Shown here piece after piece: positions 16,881 through 57,371 of a stretch of DNA of 64,000 bases; positions within the stretch are counted from its first letter, which is position 1; each line of letters starts with the position of its first letter. The notes below the pieces were generated by a model. The model was not told the DNA's origin and searched no databases. It saw nothing but the letters and a program-made list of their open reading frames with translations. The DNA comes from Chitinophagaceae bacterium (GTDB lineage Bacteria > Bacteroidota > Bacteroidia > Chitinophagales > Chitinophagaceae), in the NCBI GenBank assembly GCA_016702745.1, contig JADJDJ010000001.1, positions 547,463 through 611,462 on the forward strand, written 5' to 3'. A program made the position numbers and the translations under genes.

Positions 16881-17783
16881 ATGGTCTTACTCAACCCGCA
16901 GGGCATACAGCCATTTCTCGATTACCTCCGTTACGAAAAAAGGTATTCGGCACATACGATCCTGGCTTACCAGGGTGATCTGGAAGAATTCATTTCATTT
17001 GCAACGCAACAATACGGATCAACCGGTCTCGGGGAAATCAGTCACCACCATATCCGGAGCTGGCTGGCCGTGATGAAGGACCGGGGTCTGACCGCCCGCA
17101 GTATCAACCGGAAGATTTCCACACTCAAATCATTTTTCAGGTTTTATATGAAGCAGGGAGAGCTGGAATTATCTCCCATGGCGAAGATCATCACGCCTAA
17201 ATCCGGCAAGAAATTACCTTCTTTTATCAGAGAGGAGGATACCGTGATGTTGATGAAATCCCTTGAGCGGTCAGCGGAAGACTGGAAAAGCCTGAATGCA
17301 AAAATGCTGATAACGATCTTTTATGCCACGGGAATGCGGTTGAGTGAATTGCTGGGACTCCGGGAACGACAGATCGATTTTGAAAAAGCCCAGATCAGGG
17401 TCCTGGGAAAGGGGAATAAAGAAAGGATCATTCCGGTGAGCCGGGAACTGCTGCGGCAGATCAGGGATTATGCTGATCAGAAAAAGGCGCTGTATGAAAA
17501 GGCGGAAGACTTTCTGTTGATAACAGAAAAGGGGAAGAAGCTATATCCCAAGTACGCCTGGCTACTGGTAAATACCTATCTCGGACTCACCACCACACTG
17601 GAAAAGAAAAGCCCCCACGTGCTTCGTCATAGTTTTGCCACCCACCTGATGAACAATGGTGCGGGATTGAATGCCGTGAAGGAATTACTGGGGCACAGCA
17701 GTCTGGCCGCCACCCAGGTCTATACCCATACCACCATTGGGAAGTTAAAAGATATTCATAAAAAAGCCCATCCGAAAGCCTGA
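16881..17783 (+). CDS. xerC: Tyrosine site-specific recombinase XerC/XerD
   Basis: N-terminal SAM-like domain plus the catalytic region ATGMRLSEL...HVLRHSFATHLMNNGAGLNAVKELLGHSSLAATQVYTH. It sits in the conserved rpsU-xerC-hpf context. Confidence 0.88.
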   Translation: MVLLNPQGIQPFLDYLRYEKRYSAHTILAYQGDLEEFISFATQQYGSTGLGEISHHHIRSWLAVMKDRGLTARSINRKISTLKSFFRFYMKQGELELSPMAKIITPKSGKKLPSFIREEDTVMLMKSLERSAEDWKSLNAKMLITIFYATGMRLSELLGLRERQIDFEKAQIRVLGKGNKERIIPVSRELLRQIRDYADQKKALYEKAEDFLLITEKGKKLYPKYAWLLVNTYLGLTTTLEKKSPHVLRHSFATHLMNNGAGLNAVKELLGHSSLAATQVYTHTTIGKLKDIHKKAHPKA

Positions 17784-18709: not shown

Positions 18710-18722
18710 AGGATTTAAAAAA

Positions 18723-18825
18723 GCTTTAGCGAAGCGAGCTGATAAAAAGCTTTAGCGAAGCGAGCTGATAAAAAGCTTTAGCGAAGCGAGCTGATAAAAA
18801 GCTTTAGCGAAGCGAGCTGATAAAA
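18723..18825. repeat. 26-bp tandem repeat x4 (GCTTTAGCGAAGCGAGCTGATAAAAA) inside the tRNA-Tyr/tRNA-Gly spacer
   Basis: Unit starts at 18723, 18749, 18775 and 18801, all identical except the shortened A-run of the last unit. The unit shares AGCTTTAGCGAAG with the adjacent REP-like hairpin loop. Confidence 0.9.
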
Positions 18826-19276: not shown

Positions 19277-20467
19277 ATGGCAACTAAAGAGACCTTCAAA
19301 AGGGACAAACCACACGTTAACGTTGGTACTATCGGTCACATCGACCACGGTAAAACAACTTTAACCGCTGCTATCACTACCATTCTTTCTCAGAAGGGTA
19401 TGGCGGAAGCAAAAAAGTATGATGAAATCGATGCTGCTCCTGAAGAAAAAGAAAGGGGTATCACGATCAACACCGCGCACGTAGAATATCAGACGGCTAA
19501 TCGTCACTATGCGCACGTTGACTGTCCCGGTCACGCCGACTACGTAAAGAACATGATCACAGGTGCTGCCCAGATGGACGGCGCTATCCTGGTTGTGGCT
19601 GCTACTGATGGTCCCATGCCCCAGACAAAAGAACACATCCTGCTGGCCCGCCAGGTAGGCGTACCCCGTATGGTGGTGTTTATGAATAAAGTTGACCTGG
19701 TTGACGATCCTGAACTGCTCGACCTGGTTGAAATGGAGATCCGCGATCTGCTGACCTTCTACGGTTTCGATGGTAACAATACCCCAATCATCAAAGGTTC
19801 TGCTGCCGGCGCTCTGGCTGGTGAAGAAAAATGGGTGAAAGGTGTAGAAGAGCTGATGGAAGCTGTTGATACTTACATTCCCCTGCCTCCCCGCCCGGTT
19901 GATCAGGCTTTCCTGATGTCTGTAGAGGATGTATTCTCTATTACCGGTCGTGGTACAGTTGCCACTGGTCGTATCGAAAGAGGTCGTATCAAAGTGGGTG
20001 AAGCTGTTGAGATCGTAGGTCTGATCGAAAAGCCGCTCGCTTCTGTATGTACAGGTGTGGAAATGTTCCGCAAACTCCTTGATGAAGGTGAAGCTGGAGA
20101 CAACGCAGGTCTGCTGCTCCGTGGTATTGAAAAAACCCAGATCCGTCGCGGTATGGTTATCGTGAAGCCGGGTTCTATCACTCCGCACACTGAATTTAAA
20201 GCTGAAGTATACGTACTGAGCAAAGAAGAAGGTGGTCGTCACACTCCATTCTTCAACAAATACCGTCCTCAGTTCTACTTCCGTACAACTGACGTTACCG
20301 GAGAAGTTGAACTGAACGCAGGTACTGAAATGGTGATGCCTGGTGATAACACTTCACTCACTGTGAAGCTGATCCAGCCCATCGCGATGGAAAAAGGTCT
20401 GAAATTCGCGATCCGCGAAGGTGGCCGTACCGTAGGTGCCGGTCAGGTGACTGAAATCCTTAAGTAA
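19277..20467 (+). CDS. tuf: Elongation factor Tu
   Basis: [37 protein letters not shown] and NKVD G-motifs. Start trimmed to the ATG at 19277. Confidence 0.98.
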
Positions 20468-20545
20468 GAAGCTGTTAGCCCTGCCTGCCAGCCGGCAGGT
20501 TAAAGCAATAAAACGCTACGGGCAGGCTTTTTCAAAGAAGAATTG

Positions 20546-20553
20546 TATCTTTG
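20546..20553 (+). promoter_or_regulatory. Possible -7 promoter box (TAtcTTTG) for tRNA-Trp/secE/nusG
   Basis: Exact TAnnTTTG match. A strong hairpin begins about 10 nt downstream, so the assignment is uncertain. Confidence 0.3.
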
Positions 20554-20562
20554 TAACATAGT

Positions 20563-20600
20563 GCTAAAAGCTGTTCCGGTCAATCGGAATAGCTTTTAGC
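20563..20600 (+). other. 16-bp stem-loop (GCTAAAAGCTGTTCCG-GTCAAT-CGGAATAGCTTTTAGC)
   Basis: Pairing checked by hand: 15 Watson-Crick pairs plus 1 G-U, followed by TTTCTT. It could be the tuf terminator or a leader structure. Confidence 0.5.
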
Positions 20601-20662
20601 TTTCTTACCCCCCAGCCCCCTGAAGGGGGGCTGAAATTTTCCCCTTTAGGGGACAGGGGCTT

Positions 20663-21004
20663 ACGGGCGTAGTTCTCCCGATAGCTATCGGGAGGCAGAA
20701 TAGTTCTTTTTACGGGCGTAGTTCTCCCGATAACTATCGGGAGGCAGAATAGTTCTTTTTACGGGCGTAGTTCTCCCGATAACTATCGGGAGGCAGAATA
20801 GTTCTTTTACGGGCGTAGTTCTCCCGATAGCTATCGGGAGGCAGAATAGTTCTTTTTACGGGCGTAGTTCTCCCGATAACTATCGGGAGGCAGAATAGTT
20901 CTTTTTACGGGCGTAGTTCTCCCGATAGCTATCGGGAGGCAGAATAGTTCTTTTTACGGGCGTAGTTCTCCCGATAGCTATCGGGAGGCAGAATAGTTCT
21001 TTTT
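20663..21004 (+). repeat. Seven tandem 49-bp units derived from nt 1-26 of tRNA-Trp, each with an 18-nt palindrome
   Basis: Unit starts at 20663, 20712, 20761, 20809, 20858, 20907 and 20956. Unit = ACGGGCGTAGTTC + TCCCGATA(G/A)CTATCGGGA + GGCAGAATAG + TTCTTTTT. The next period begins at nt 1 of the real tRNA-Trp. Confidence 0.95.
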
Positions 21005-21075
21005 ACGGGCGTAGTTCAATGGCAGAATAGCGGTCTCCAAAACCGTTGATGGGAGTTCGAATCTCTCCGCCCGTG
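21005..21075 (+). tRNA. tRNA-Trp (anticodon CCA)
   Basis: Acceptor ACGGGCG/CGCCCGT, D arm GTTC-AATGGCA-GAAT, anticodon arm GCGGT-CTCCAAA-ACCGT, T arm GGGAG-TTCGAAT-CTCTC, discriminator G. Confidence 0.92.
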
Positions 21076-21124
21076 CAGATTAGTTAACTTGTTAATCAGT
21101 TGAAAAGTTGAAAAGGAAAACCCT

Positions 21125-21156
21125 GTCAACCGTTCAACTTGTCAACCTTTCAACTT
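21125..21156. repeat. Octamer tract GTCAACCG-TTCAACTT-GTCAACCT-TTCAACTT abutting the secE start codon
   Basis: The CAAC core recurs every 8 nt, four times. GTTGAAAA x2 at 21099-21114 lies in inverted orientation. This is the reverse-complement family of 22049-22096. Confidence 0.7.
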
Positions 21157-21157
21157 T

Positions 21158-21352
21158 ATGAGCAAAATCGCGAATTATTTCCGGGACTCTTATTTGGAGT
21201 TAAAAGACAAAGTGACCTGGCCTACCTGGCCCCAGTTGCAGCAATCAACCATGATTGTACTCGCAGCCACGATCGTCATTACTTTCGTTGTACTGGCGAT
21301 GGATTTTGTGTTCGGAAATGGTCTGAAGTTTATTTACAAACAACTTTTCTAA
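21158..21352 (+). CDS. secE: Preprotein translocase subunit SecE
   Basis: 64 aa with a single C-terminal TM helix: YLELKDKVTWPTWPQLQQSTMIVLAATIVITFVV. Conserved position before nusG. Confidence 0.92.
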   Translation: MSKIANYFRDSYLELKDKVTWPTWPQLQQSTMIVLAATIVITFVVLAMDFVFGNGLKFIYKQLF

Positions 21353-21355
21353 ACA

Positions 21356-21937
21356 ATGGATGCAGCTACAGCAAATACAGAAAATGTACAGCAGCAGGAT
21401 ACCAAGTGGTATGTATTGCGGGTTGTAAGCGGCAAGGAAAAGAAGGTAAAAGAATACCTGGATAAAGAAGTGAGCCGCGGCGGATGGGACCAGGTTAAAC
21501 AGGTTTTCCTTCCCGTAGAGAAAGTGTACAAAGTTGCCAATGGTAAAAAAGTAATGCGGGAGAGAAACTATTATCCCGGTTATGTGATGATCGAAATTGC
21601 CAATGGCAAACTGTCTGACGACCTGAAAGATATTATCAAGAATACCACCAATGTGATCCATTTTCTCGGGAAAGAAGATCCCATTGCCCTTCGCAAAGCC
21701 GAAGTCAATAAGATGCTCGGCAAAATGGACGAAATGGCCGAAAGCGGTGGCGTGAGCATGGTAGAACCCTTTATCGTGGGTGAAACCATCAAGATCATCG
21801 AAGGACCATTCAACGACTTCAATGGCGTAATCGAAGAAGTAAACGATGAGAAGAAGAAACTGAAAGTAACCGTGAAAATCTTCGGTCGCTCTACCCCTGT
21901 TGAATTGAACTATATGCAGGTGGAAAAGATCAGCTAA
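21356..21937 (+). CDS. nusG: Transcription termination/antitermination factor NusG
   Basis: NGN domain (KWYVLRVVSGKEKKV) and C-terminal KOW domain (GETIKIIEGPFNDFNGVIEEV). Confidence 0.96.
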   Translation: MDAATANTENVQQQDTKWYVLRVVSGKEKKVKEYLDKEVSRGGWDQVKQVFLPVEKVYKVANGKKVMRERNYYPGYVMIEIANGKLSDDLKDIIKNTTNVIHFLGKEDPIALRKAEVNKMLGKMDEMAESGGVSMVEPFIVGETIKIIEGPFNDFNGVIEEVNDEKKKLKVTVKIFGRSTPVELNYMQVEKIS

Positions 21938-21996: not shown

Positions 21997-22016
21997 TTGG
22001 GGAGAGGATATTGAGA

Positions 22017-22096
22017 TATCAGGATATTGGGATATTAGTATTTTGGAAGTTGAAAAGTTGAGTAGTTGAACGGTTGAAAGGTTGAGAAGTTGAAAC
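22017..22096. repeat. Ten consecutive phase-locked octamers: GATATNNN x4 then GTTGANNN x6
   Basis: GATATTGA GATATCAG GATATTGG GATATTAG GTTGAAAA GTTGAGTA GTTGAACG GTTGAAAG GTTGAGAA GTTGAAAC, with no phase break. Confidence 0.9.
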
Positions 22097-23040: not shown

Positions 23041-23484
23041 ATGGCAAAAGAAATCAGCGGCTTTGTAAAGCTGCAATGCAAGGGCGGCCAGGCCAACCCG
23101 GCACCGCCAATCGGTCCTGCACTGGGTTCCAAGGGTATCAACATCATGGAATTCTGTAAGCAGTTCAACGCAAGAACACAGGACAAACCTGGTAAAGTTC
23201 TCCCCGTATTAATCACCGTTTACACCGACAAGAGTTTTGATTTTATCATCAAAACACCTCCTGCAGCTGTACAGCTGATGGAAGCGGCAAAAATTCAGAA
23301 AGGTTCCAAAGAGAGCAACCGTATCAAAGTAGGTAAAGTGAACTGGGCACAGGTAGAAGAAATCGCTAAAGACAAAATGCCTGACCTGAACTGCTTTACT
23401 ATTGAAAGCGCCATGAAAATGGTTGCCGGTACGGCCCGCAGCATGGGCTTAACGGTAGAAGGAAAAGCTCCCTGGGATAATTAA
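23041..23484 (+). CDS. rplK: 50S ribosomal protein L11
   Basis: [43 protein letters not shown]. Confidence 0.98.
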
Positions 23485-23534
23485 TGCCCCTAAATCCCCT
23501 GAAGGGGACTTCAAAACTCTTAAACGAATTTATT

Positions 23535-35838: not shown

Positions 35839-36370
35839 GATTCACCGCGGAGAACAAGAGAACGCAGCGTCTTCGCCCGCAGGGCCCGCAGAGAAACTTA
35901 ACCGCTATGACGCGATGGCGCTAAGAGGGATTCACCGCCCGAAGGGTCCTTTGGACCGAGGTGCAGAGACCGCGGAGTTTTCGCCCGCAGGGCCCTGTGG
36001 GCAGAGAGACTTAACCGCTATGACGCGATGGCGCTAAGAGGGATTTACCGCCCGAAGGGTCCTTTGGACAGAGGTGCAGAGATCGCGGAGTTTTCGCCCG
36101 CAGGGCCTTGTGGGCAGAGATTTTTTGTCCAAAGGACTCTTCGAGCGTTCTTAGCGGGAAAAAATTTGTATTTCGAGCGAAGCGAGAAATCTTGTATTCT
36201 TTCACTTCCCCTGAACTGTCATCCCGAACATAGTGAGGGATCTTGTATTTCAGACTTCTTTGTGGCCTTAGTGTCTTTGCGGGAAAAATTCACCGCGAAG
36301 TACAAGAGAACGCGGAGTCTTAGAGAGGTATTTTTTGTCCAAAGGACTCTTCGAGCTTTCTTAGCGGGAA
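35839..36370. repeat. Repeat-rich non-coding island: 113-bp tandem duplication plus dispersed and inverted sub-repeats
   Basis: Units start at GATTCACCGCCCGAAGGGTCCTTTGGAC (35928) and GATTTACCGCCCGAAGGGTCCTTTGGAC (36041). TTTTTTGTCCAAAGGACTCTTCGAGC occurs at 36120 and 36331 and is inverted relative to GTCCTTTGGAC. A TCACCGCG(G)A(GA/AGT)ACAAGAGAACGC motif occurs at 35841 and 36289. Confidence 0.85.
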
Positions 36371-48665: not shown

Positions 48666-48739
48666 GGATCGGTAGTTCAGTTGGTTAGAATGCCGCCCTG
48701 TCACGGCGGAGGTCGCGGGTTCGAGTCCCGTCCGGTCCG
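48666..48739 (+). tRNA. tRNA-Asp (anticodon GUC)
   Basis: Acceptor GGATCGG/CCGGTCC (one G-U), D arm GTTCAGTTGGTTAGAAT, anticodon arm CCGCC-CTGTCAC-GGCGG, T arm GCGGG-TTCGAGT-CCCGT, discriminator G. Confidence 0.93.
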
Positions 48740-48744
48740 CAGAA

Positions 48745-48776
48745 AGCTCCACAGCAATGTGGGGCTTTTTGTTTTT
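48745..48776 (+). terminator. Rho-independent terminator after tRNA-Asp (repeated with every array unit)
   Basis: AGCTCCACA-GCAA-TGTGGGGCT forms a 9-bp stem with a GNRA loop, followed by TTTTTGTTTTT. The same hairpin recurs at about 48925, 49105, 49265, 49379 and 49903. Confidence 0.8.
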
Positions 48777-49480
48777 AAAGTAGTTCAGGAAGTATTGGTC
48801 GTACAGTAGGTGAAATTGCCGCACTGTCATCCCCACAGCATTGTGAGGACGGGTCCCGACGCTACGGTCGGGATGCCGACAAGCGAAGCTTCGTCGTCAT
48901 TCGAGTCCCGTCCGGTCCGCAGAAAGCTCCACAGCAATGTGGGGCTTTTTGTTTTTAAAGTAGTTCAGGAAGTATTGGTCGTACAGTAGGTGAAATTGCC
49001 GCACTGTCATCCCCACAGCATTGTGAGGACGGGTCCCGACGCTACGGTCGGGATGCCGACAAGCGAAGCTTCGTCGTCATTCGAGTCCCGTCCGGTCCGC
49101 AGAAAGCTCCACAGCAATGTGGGGCTTTTTGTTTTTAGTAGATCATTTGGTTAGAATGCCGCCCTGTCATCCCCACAGTATTGTGGGGACGGGTCCCGAC
49201 GCTACGGTCGGGATGCCGACAAGCGAAGCTTCGTCGTCATTCGAGTCCCGTCCGGTCCGCAAAAAGCTCCACAGCAATGTGGGGCTTTTGTTTTTAGTAG
49301 ATCATTTGGTTAGAATGCCGCCCTGTCATCCCCACAGCATTGTGGGGACGGTGTTCGAGTCCCGTCCGGTCCGCAGAAAGCTCCACAGCAATGTGGGGCT
49401 TTTTGTTTTTAGTAGATCATTTGGTTAGAATGCCGCCCTGTCATCCCCACAGTATTGTGGGGACGGTGTTCGAGTCCCGT
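48777..49480 (+). repeat. Array of five tRNA-Asp-derived partial copies (180, 180, 159, 115 and 70 nt), each carrying inserted hairpin modules
   Basis: U1 (48777-48956) and U2 (48957-49136) are 180/180 identical. U3 is 49137-49295, U4 is 49296-49410, and U5 is 49411-49480 (truncated after TTCGAGTCCCGT). All keep D-arm/anticodon-5' sequence and U1-U4 keep the 3' 22 nt TTCGAGTCCCGTCCGGTCCGCA, but none has the 5' acceptor strand or the 3' anticodon-stem strand. Confidence 0.92.
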
Positions 49481-49523
49481 ACGATTTTGATGAAGAATTG
49501 AGAAATCTTTGATTTTTGTATGG

Positions 49524-49799
49524 ATGGCTTATTATGTGTATATCATCCAGAGTGCAAAAGATATGAGTTATTATAAAGGGTACTCTTGTGATCCTGTTAT
49601 CCGATTACAACAGCACAATAACAGGGAATCATCTTATACATCTGGAAAATGCCCTTGGAAACTCGTTTATGTGGAAGAATTGGGTTCGAAAAAAGAAGCG
49701 TTGATCCGGGAAAAAAATCTAAAGAAAGCTACAAGGGAACGAATTGAAGCGTTAATTAATCACCCTAAAAACATAGTGGAGCGTTTTCTAGGGAATTGA
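49524..49799 (+). CDS. Small GIY-YIG nuclease-superfamily protein (COG2827/UPF0213-like, 91 aa)
   Basis: MAYYVYIIQS...SYYKGYS (GIY...YIG), RLQQHN (conserved Arg) and KKEALIREKNLKK (conserved Glu). Embedded between tRNA-Asp-derived units U5 and U6. Confidence 0.85.
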   Translation: MAYYVYIIQSAKDMSYYKGYSCDPVIRLQQHNNRESSYTSGKCPWKLVYVEELGSKKEALIREKNLKKATRERIEALINHPKNIVERFLGN

Positions 49800-49831
49800 A
49801 GAGTTTAACTCACGGTTCATTTTTCCAAAAT

Positions 49832-49934
49832 GGGATTAATTGCCGCCCTGTCATCCCCACAGCTTTGTGGGGACGGGTTCGAGTCCCGTCCGGTCCGCAG
49901 GAAGCTCCACAGCAATGTGGGGCTTTTTGTTTTT
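49832..49934 (+). repeat. Sixth tRNA-Asp-derived unit (U6) downstream of the GIY-YIG gene
   Basis: GGGATTAATTGCCGCCCTGTCA + TCCCCACAGCTTTGTGGGGA + CGGGTTCGAGTCCCGTCCGGTCCGCA + terminator hairpin. The T arm ACGGG/CCCGT is intact here. Confidence 0.9.
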
Positions 49935-50078
49935 AGAGAATCTCCTGTTTAAAATGTTGCATCTCAGAAAAAAGTGATTAAGCAACGATAACCGCTTTTT
50001 GTCCCTGATTATCAATTATTAGCCCCTAAAACCGCTATTATCATATAATCCTTAATTTAGCCCCTCATTTTTAAGCCT

Positions 50079-57298: not shown

Positions 57299-57310
57299 AT
57301 GAGAAAAAAA

Positions 57311-57371
57311 GAAACAAGAAACAAGAAACAAGATACAAGAGACAAAAAAAGATACAAGAAACAAGAGACAA
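57311..57371. repeat. GAAACAA-family heptamer tract (5 units, A5 spacer, 3 units)
   Basis: GAAACAA GAAACAA GAAACAA GATACAA GAGACAA aaaaa GATACAA GAAACAA GAGACAA. AAGAAACAAGATACAAGAGACAAA is the perfect inverted repeat of 57495-57518. Confidence 0.9.

Follow-up and report, generated by a model that had tools for sequence, protein, structure and literature searches.

Tandem repeats that carry tRNA fragments, and clusters resembling repetitive extragenic palindromes (REPs), are both already known. At tyrT of Escherichia coli, repeats of 178 bp reportedly each carry the last 19 nt of tRNA-Tyr, and are said to have arisen by unequal recombination. In cyanobacteria, small dispersed repeats of about 20 nt are said to have no coding capacity, to be palindromic or associated with hairpins, and sometimes to be nested or to sit in existing hairpins. 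The mechanism that mobilises them is reportedly not known, and we know of no preference of theirs for redundant tRNA copies, nor of their tandem amplification with tRNA flanks. Integrases that target tRNA genes, for their part, leave 3' fragments of the tRNA, which lie at the distal end of a large integrated element. We describe an array of seven partial copies of tRNA-Trp, each interrupted by an 18-nt palindrome, in 64,000 nt of a Chitinophagaceae genome (assembly GCA_016702745.1, contig JADJDJ010000001.1, positions 547,463 to 611,462). This whole stretch is called the window, and its own coordinates are used throughout. We favour, with moderate confidence, the explanation that the array is a lineage-specific tandem reiteration, similar to a minisatellite or a REP cluster, of a dispersed palindrome together with the partial tRNA-Trp duplicate that flanks it, and that it is a neutral or slightly costly by-product.

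An array of tRNA-Trp fragments and its alleles in relatives

In the one assembly of the source strain on which the copy number rests, positions 20663 to 21004 of the forward strand consist of seven head-to-tail units of 49 nt, except for the third, which has 48 nt. By direct reading of the sequence, these are units 1 (20663-20711), 2 (20712-20760), 3 (20761-20808), 4 (20809-20857), 5 (20858-20906), 6 (20907-20955) and 7 (20956-21004). Their starts are spaced by 49, 49, 48, 49, 49 and 49 nt, and an eighth period falls on 21005, base 1 of the intact tRNA-Trp(CCA), so that the array is in phase with the tRNA. Tandem Repeats Finder (TRF) gives a single array at 20661-21017, with a period of 49, 7.3 copies, 98% matches and no indels scored, as well as a higher-order period of 146 nt. 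Each unit is composed of ACGGGCGTAGTTC, which is nt 1-13 of tRNA-Trp, the palindrome TCCCGATA(G/A)CTATCGGGA, which takes the place of the D-loop AAT (nt 14-16), GGCAGAATAG (nt 17-26) and the tail TTCTTTTT, or TTCTTTT(T), one T shorter in unit 3. Besides this T, the only difference between units is the loop centre of the palindrome, whose order from unit 1 to unit 7 is G, A, A, G, A, G, G. An earlier reading of this DNA, made from the sequence only, had given the same unit starts, periods and phase with tRNA-Trp, which direct reading confirms, as TRF does for the array and ARAGORN and Rfam for the tRNA; its description of the unit makeup, the G/A pattern and the shorter third tail is exact. The near-identity of the seven units suggests that the expansion is probably recent.

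Adding the flanking C and G brings the perfect palindrome to 20 nt (CTCCCGATAGCTATCGGGAG), and a folded unit forms a 9-bp stem of -15.5 kcal/mol. When up to three mismatches are allowed, the 18-mer has 15 strand-matches in the 64-kb window, against 0.06 expected from shuffles of the window, and all of them lie inside the array except one weak match. None of the open reading frames (ORFs) of at least 50 aa listed for the window overlaps the array.

The close relatives aligned with the window do not have the array. The protein encoded by the upstream gene tuf (elongation factor EF-Tu) is found unchanged on 23 public contigs, and seven of these, from several samples and assemblers, were aligned across the spacer between tuf and tRNA-Trp. 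All seven run unbroken from tuf into the tRNA without the palindrome: they read ...CCCCTTTAGGGGACAGGGGC-A-GGGAGGCAGAATAGTTCTTTTT-ACGGGCG, where ACGGGCG belongs to the tRNA. What they retain of a unit is only its last 22 nt, GGGAGGCAGAATAGTTCTTTTT, which also ends unit 7 and which includes the final GGGA of the palindrome. Since their junction GGGGCAGGGAGG is absent from the array of the window, these contigs correspond to real alleles and not to collapsed assemblies. Another contig, L002 (related loci are designated by L numbers), encodes an identical SecE and starts with the same stub. L211, one of the seven aligned contigs, also has the tRNA-secE spacer of the window, which indicates that it is very close to the window strain. 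Most identical-EF-Tu contigs (the L205 group) are without a 42-nt block of that spacer, which is present in the window and in L211. As the identical-EF-Tu assemblies keep only the stub, the array is, on this comparison of sequences, lineage-specific, dispensable and variable. The two hallmarks of minisatellites, or variable number tandem repeats, are both found here, namely head-to-tail copies and a copy number that differs between close genomes (seven against a 22-nt stub).

More distant relatives contain one or a few fragments of tRNA-Trp at the same place, between the leader hairpin described below and the tRNA gene. In L025 (Flavisolibacter), there is one unamplified copy, ACGGGCATAGTT-TCCCGATAGCTATCGGGA-GCAGAATAGCGG, whose palindrome is identical and occupies the corresponding D-loop position. 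Variant hairpins are found in fragments of the form ACGGGCATGGT-[CCCGCC...GGCGGG]-ATACGGGTC, one copy each in L037, L040 and L071 and three in L031. In L019 and L046, nt 1-11 of the tRNA are followed by two hairpins and then by the rest of the D-arm, and in L015, which has at least two copies, the anticodon arm is swapped for TCCCGGCTGAGCCGGGA. The base of the hairpin, T-CCCG...CGGG-A, is the same in all the tRNA-Trp fragments of relatives that were examined. Given that L025 has one copy with the identical palindrome, and other relatives one to three with variant hairpins, the pseudo-fragment is, as far as these sequences tell, older than the array.

The region into which these fragments fall is conserved. 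In most relatives, a TAnnTT(T/C)G box is followed by a perfect hairpin of about 40 nt and then, after five or six bases (TTTCT/TTTCAT), by tRNA-Trp. The window has the same box, TATCTTTG (20546-20553, forward strand), which from sequence reading and the relatives is a putative Bacteroidota-type -7 promoter box of a tRNA-Trp-secE-nusG unit, and the same hairpin, GCTAAAAGCTGTT...AATAGCTTTTAGC (20563-20600, forward strand), of 17 pairs. The latter was flagged as a stem-loop and recurs in many relatives with covarying inner pairs. Because box and hairpin are those of the relatives, the array can be placed between the conserved promoter and leader hairpin on one side and the tRNA on the other, and from this conservation it would be transcribed as leader RNA. 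The tuf to tRNA-Trp spacer measures 537 nt, versus 61 to 381 nt, and mostly about 110 to 120 nt, in 69 related species. Between the leader hairpin and the array (20609-20662, forward strand) lie two small GC hairpins, CAGCCCCCTGAAGGGGGGCTG (20613-20633) and TCCCCTTTAGGGGA (20640-20653), which have a variant form in the identical-EF-Tu contigs and are absent from most other relatives.

The leader hairpins of Chitinophagaceae (20563-20600 in the window, the same place in L005 to L084) belong to at least three unrelated sequence families, starting with GCTAAAAGCTGT, CAAAAGTCATTGGT and CAAAGTACTTAGG. Their inner pairs covary, and a motif, AGCTTTTAGC, recurs just past the tuf stop codon. Candidate roles for the hairpin are those of a 5' stabiliser, an attenuator or an operator.

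Hairpin-marked tRNA copies and a dispersed palindrome

In 67 species-level loci, we looked for partial copies of the tRNA genes that each locus contains. The 62 clusters listed include chance 11-mer matches in coding DNA; counting from this listing, about 26 of the 67 loci have true pseudo-copies beside tRNA-Thr, -Gly or -Trp. In most of these copies, either one of the loops (D or T) or the anticodon arm has given way to a GC-rich hairpin. A CCCG...CGGG hairpin is present in 23 of the 62 listed clusters, and several others have degenerate versions. A typical pseudo-tRNA reads GGTAGAGCA-TCCCGA(loop)TCGGGA-AGGTCG, the 17-nt anticodon arm being cleanly exchanged for the hairpin. Where this was examined (L016, L082 and the tRNA-Asp arrays), copies upstream of the gene keep the 5' part of the tRNA and copies downstream keep the 3' part, an arrangement that partial tandem duplications would produce. 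A pseudo-tRNA-Thr of L044 (position 1092) is close to the units of the window: TCCCGATAGTTATCGGGA replaces the same three bases of the D-loop, has one mismatch to the palindrome and is the reverse complement of its A-variant.

Two other observations concern pseudo-tRNA-Thr. The 'tRNA-Thr(AGT)' called by ARAGORN at L016:272-346 is a pseudo-tRNA with a broken acceptor stem, whose anticodon arm is replaced by the hairpin TCCCGATGAGTTATCGGGA. At L008:800-863, L029:483-538 and L083:698-754, 3' parts of pseudo-tRNA-Thr(TGT) carry an insert of about 27 to 29 nt in the T-loop (CCTGCCCGACTGAAGTCGTTCAGGCGGGG and variants). As this type of insert is common to three species, some hairpin-marked copies would persist across speciation.

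The window itself contains a second array of this kind. Behind its tRNA-Asp gene (48666-48740) come five pseudo-tRNA-Asp units that have a terminator each, then a gene for a 91-aa GIY-YIG protein (49524-49799; Pfam E = 3e-14) and then one more unit, the whole region being 48666-49935. In these units, the hairpin TCCCCACAG(c/t)(a/t)TTGTGGGGA, with one base changed in two of them, replaces nt 38-49 of the tRNA. Homologues of the GIY-YIG gene come directly after tRNA-Asp, with as many as five or six tandem cassettes, in Chitinophagaceae, Mucilaginibacter and Saprospiraceae, and the combination of GIY-YIG gene and pseudo-tRNA-Asp looks, from its sequence, like a tRNA-Asp-specific selfish cassette. 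The array varies in size: the distance from tRNA-Asp to GIY-YIG is 784 nt in the window and 170 to 1208 nt in five related contigs, and L216 has about nine units. Three units of the window (at 48853-48899, 49033-49079 and 49193-49239) contain a module of about 47 nt with two hairpins (GTCCCGACGCTACGGTCGGGAT GCCGACAAGCGAAGCTTCGTCGTCA). It is absent from the units of the close relative L216, a homologous module is found in the pseudo-tRNA-Trp of L019 and a degraded one in L046, so that in its distribution it behaves like a small mobile insertion.

A further tandem array lies in a tRNA spacer of the same genome, between tRNA-Tyr and tRNA-Gly (18718-18825), where a perfect 26-nt repeat, AAAAAGCTTTAGCGAAGCGAGCTGAT, is present in 4.2 copies, with one GCGAAGC-type hairpin per unit.

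The palindrome of the tRNA-Trp array is not a peculiarity of this locus: further genera, pseudo-copies of other tRNAs and viral contigs have it as well. Exact copies of the 18-mer are found in inter-tRNA spacers of relatives (L025:78 and L046:824). Within IMG/VR, 46 stretches contain the exact 18-mer, whereas two control palindromes of matched composition give 2 and 1; the 46 correspond to 44 distinct sites once overlaps and reverse-complement duplicates are merged. Several viral contigs hold up to five copies. Among matches to TCCCGAT-NNNN-ATCGGGA, AGCT is the commonest centre, in a tally that is biased by the earlier scan. Some viral copies occupy the tip of a pre-existing hairpin, as in AAAACCCG[pal]CGGGTTTTTTT, and one is inside an apparent phage tRNA-like sequence. 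When flank pairing was estimated by duplex energy, with offsets tolerated, 7 of the 44 sites passed the first percentile of the controls (Mann-Whitney p = 5e-4), a modest enrichment; counted in strict symmetric register, flank complementarity showed no enrichment at palindrome sites. Only about one fifth of the sites are clearly at hairpin tips. Taken over pseudo-tRNA-Trp, -Thr and -Asp loops or arms, inter-tRNA spacers, hairpin tips and viral contigs, the TCCCGATAGCTATCGGGA family has an invariant base, TCCCG/CGGGA. A looser pattern, ACGGGCRTRGTN{0,3}CCCGN{3,24}CGGGA, matched 120 metagenome stretches; the matches that were inspected resembled chance hits in DNA of high GC content, most of which looked coding.

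Some copies in IMG/VR (L233:245, L259:9037 and L264:8158) are nested in, or fused to half of, another palindrome, as in ATCCCGATAG-TCCCGATAGCTATCGGGA-TCGGGA, and the viral contig UViG_3300009870_000707 has at least five copies among simple repeats of the AATTGATA type. A second dispersed nano-hairpin, (G)CCCCTAAA-TCCCCT(R)AAGGGGA-CTT, is found in different intergenic spacers of several genera: at 23484-23510 in the window, and at L006:4586, L032:2498, L054:2489, L064:2504, L071:6161 and L077:3316. Its sites include the start of a predicted ORF in the rplA region (window) and tuf to tRNA-Trp spacers of relatives.

Origin of the array and possible roles

How, then, could such an array be generated? 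Comparison with the relatives points to a tandem duplication of the 5' flank and nt 1-26 of tRNA-Trp upstream of the gene, and in many Chitinophagaceae real tRNA genes do have partial copies of this sort next to them. As the comparisons show, the 18-nt palindrome TCCCGATAGCTATCGGGA then took the place of nt 14-16 in the D-loop of this redundant copy. In the window lineage, slipped-strand or unequal recombination between the direct repeats may have led to seven 49-nt copies, possibly promoted by extrusion of the palindrome as a hairpin; in the identical-EF-Tu contigs, the same element would instead have been truncated to the 22-nt stub. Such behaviour matches that of the tRNA-Asp arrays, with their varying distance to the GIY-YIG gene and the nine or so units of L216. 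The expected consequence is a leader lengthened by about 343 nt of structured RNA, with removal by RNase P at 21005. The effect of the array is most likely none, or a mild cost to tRNA-Trp maturation.

The sequence-only reading had arrived at much the same scenario, a palindrome entering a duplicated 5' part of the tRNA and then being amplified, and the single copy of L025, the one to three variant copies of other relatives and the 22-nt stub all speak for it. Its placing of the array in the leader, on condition that the box is the promoter, is supported by the relatives, most of which have TATCTTTG and the perfect hairpin of about 40 nt directly before tRNA-Trp, and its link with the tRNA-Asp array by the two-hairpin module common to pseudo-tRNA-Asp of the window and pseudo-tRNA-Trp of L019.

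Several observations weigh against reiteration as a mere by-product. The tRNA-like parts match the tRNA of their own lineage (in the window, G at position 7); this fits a recent origin or gene conversion, and it also fits a selected ability to pair or to mimic. In several genera, pseudo-fragments have remained at this place of the leader. All the polymorphism sits in the hairpin loop or in the T-run, as a constrained structure would also give. As for the kinship with REPs, the GTAG/CGTC tag is not conserved: of 92 half-site flanks, one has GTAG and four have CGTC, and the flanks are merely C-rich. No transposase was identified in the 64 kb of genome seen, in which no systematic scan for a Y1 (RAYT) transposase was made.

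A more ambitious explanation, which we hold to be unlikely, is that a family of nano-palindromes of 16 to 20 nt, with TCCCGATAGCTATCGGGA as master copy and TCCCG/CGGGA as base, inserts at hairpin apexes in Bacteroidota and their viruses, with a preference for the D, anticodon and T loops of redundant tRNAs. By this account it would mark or disable duplicates and create recombination hot spots, and at the present locus seven decoys would throttle tRNA-Trp maturation and secE-nusG in a manner that varies with copy number. The regulatory part of this proposal can be considered separately. Seven copies of ACGGGCG could rival the true 5' strand in pairing with the only 3' strand, CGCCCGT, slowing RNase P processing or coupling tRNA-Trp maturation to secE-nusG, with copy number as a tunable throttle. 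In favour of this, the array keeps the phase of the tRNA and follows the conserved promoter and hairpin within the leader, the decoy strands agree with the cognate tRNA in all lineages examined, and sequence variation spares the stem. In an equilibrium model, moreover, the 3' strand pairs with the first decoy with p ~0.9 and with the true 5' strand with p ~0.05, the minimum free energy structures agree, and on that model the decoy idea is physically conceivable. However, this pairing is expected, since identical 7-mers must compete, and the model ignores co-transcriptional order and kinetics, tRNA tertiary structure and proteins such as RNase P. The identical-EF-Tu contigs have neither the array nor any decoy strand, most relatives pass directly from the leader hairpin to the tRNA, and the copy of L046 is decaying. 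The same hairpin-marked fragments also flank tRNA-Thr and tRNA-Asp, at positions, some of them downstream, to which the decoy logic does not apply. From the absence of the array in identical-EF-Tu assemblies, including L211 with its shared tRNA-secE spacer, we argue that no essential function depends on it, and a regulatory leader appears to us distinctly unlikely.

A selfish element with a nuclease or recombinase that targets tRNA genes, as the GIY-YIG cassettes do at tRNA-Asp, could have left the fragments as a footprint, each hairpin-marked copy being an immune or scar copy and the array the product of repeated cleavage and repair. The GIY-YIG gene of the window does sit among hairpin-marked pseudo-tRNA-Asp copies, whose two-hairpin module recurs in L019 pseudo-tRNA-Trp. 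In Paraflavitalea and Danxiaibacter, four GIY-YIG cassettes follow tRNA-Asp; each cassette is followed by a recognisable pseudo-tRNA-Asp in Paraflavitalea, but only by related hairpins and a short tRNA-like stub in Danxiaibacter. Yet all the GIY-YIG homologues sampled are at tRNA-Asp and never at tRNA-Trp, including those of six further contexts, which leaves this gene unsupported as the source of the tRNA-Trp fragments; the tuf to tRNA-Trp spacers examined, at most 381 nt long in the relatives, hold no ORF, and the two sets of fragments differ, those of tRNA-Trp being 5' parts that precede the gene and those of tRNA-Asp 3' parts that follow it. This origin therefore seems quite improbable. 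That the copy number, or the whole array, is a mis-assembled repeat is highly improbable. No independent assembly with the array was found, and of the four short-read contigs with the identical SecE, three stop within or close to tRNA-Trp, but assembler loops do not usually make ordered, non-uniform variants (G, A, A-short, G, A, G, G), relatives have genuine versions with one to three copies, and comparable tRNA-Asp arrays are present in several independent assemblies. The chance that the seven palindromes of 18 to 20 bp, 49 bp apart, are iteron- or operator-like sites for a dimeric regulator of the operon is close to negligible. They are perfect, regularly spaced and placed between a promoter and essential genes, but single copies of the palindrome are also present in unrelated contexts, terminator tips and viral contigs among them, and the array is missing from the identical-EF-Tu contigs. 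In addition, related hairpins keep their pairing and vary away from the base, which fits a structural feature, or one of single-stranded DNA or RNA, and not a fixed operator.

If reiteration of a dispersed palindrome with its tRNA flank is the right explanation, the array alone is a strain marker and a probable by-product, of little importance by itself. The wider pattern is that tRNA genes of Chitinophagaceae are flanked by partial copies in which a loop or arm is cleanly replaced by a TCCCG/CGGGA-based hairpin, and that one exact 18-nt palindrome recurs across tRNA pseudo-copies, genera and viral contigs. If mobile, such palindromes would be among the smallest mobile DNA elements, and hairpin tips would be a structural target of an unusual sort. 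If they are under selection, this would suggest a means by which dangerous duplicates of tRNAs are made harmless. In practice, they can break short-read assemblies at tRNA loci and give spurious tRNA calls, such as the 'tRNA-Thr(AGT)' of L016.

Neighbouring features and comparison with known systems

The genes around the array are ordered tRNA-Thr, -Tyr, -Gly, -Thr, tuf, spacer, tRNA-Trp, secE, nusG, rplK, rplA and rplJ. On the forward strand, tuf occupies 19277-20467, as given by its ORF and translation, and the intact tRNA-Trp(CCA), whose CCA end is not encoded, 21005-21076 according to ARAGORN (Rfam RF00005, 66.5 bits at 21005-21075). The ORF of secE follows at 21158-21352, with a Pfam SecE match on contigs encoding the identical protein, and that of nusG at 21356-21937, the product of which is 85 to 94% identical to NusG of Chitinophagaceae; a search of public sequences found no record with an identical NusG. 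The contigs with the exact SecE are short.

Other repeats were observed in the window. Short direct repeats are present upstream of secE (21077-21157, TGTCAACCKTTCAACT, 2.1 copies) and downstream of nusG (22005-22095, AAGTTGAA, about six copies). An intergenic GC-rich repeat of 113 nt at 35888-36120 has 2.1 copies with 95% identity and contains small hairpins such as CGCCCGAAGGG and GGTCCTTTGGAC, and the heptanucleotide AAACAAG is repeated 9.9 times at 57305-57371, with 82% identity.

Several familiar classes of element were tried and rejected for the tRNA-Trp array. A CRISPR array is ruled out by the inter-palindrome sequence, the same tRNA-derived 31 nt in every unit. For an intrinsic terminator or attenuator, the U-run lies too far away, 13 nt past the 18-nt palindrome and 11 nt past the extended stem, and the terminator scan flagged no unit; it did flag the leader hairpin at 20563-20600. 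In Rfam, searched with 20468-21160 at gathering and at permissive thresholds (E up to 1), the only matches were the true tRNA-Trp and a chance miRNA match on the leader hairpin. Literature searches on partial-tRNA tandem repeats, and on GIY-YIG genes with tRNAs in Bacteroidetes, brought up no description of hairpin-substituted pseudo-tRNAs flanking tRNA genes or of the 18-nt palindrome.

Like the partial tRNA copies at attL and attR, the units place a tRNA gene fragment next to the intact gene. A remnant of an attachment site is ruled out, as the fragments are 5' (nt 1-26), upstream and 49 nt apart, with no ORF of at least 50 aa in the spacer and no integrase or island in between. A recombinase gene is present at 16881-17783, and it has the same position in the identical-EF-Tu contigs.

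With REP clusters (2013, PMC3733652), the locus has in common a short, stem-loop-forming palindrome, which is dispersed over intergenic sites of relatives (within the 64-kb window it occurs only in the array) and clustered with other small hairpins, as well as tandem reiteration together with flanking DNA, in a copy number that differs between the window and the identical-EF-Tu contigs. The differences are that the palindrome of the window has only 18 to 20 nt, that the GTAG/CGTC tetranucleotide is not conserved at its ends, which sets it apart from the REPs and their mosaic elements (BIMEs), that no RAYT transposase was identified (no systematic scan being made), that it often replaces loops or arms of tRNA pseudo-copies, and that it is common in viral contigs too. 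The small dispersed repeats of cyanobacteria are similar in their length of about 20 nt, their palindromic nature and their nesting or placement in hairpins; the present case concerns another phylum and another sequence. As at tyrT, finally, tandem repeats lie beside a tRNA gene and each carries a fragment of that tRNA. The tyrT repeats, however, are downstream, include the tRNA's 3' end and are not known to carry a palindrome substitution, whereas the units of the window are upstream, contain the 5' 26 nt and are 49 nt long. The closer analogue of tyrT is the tRNA-Asp array of the window.

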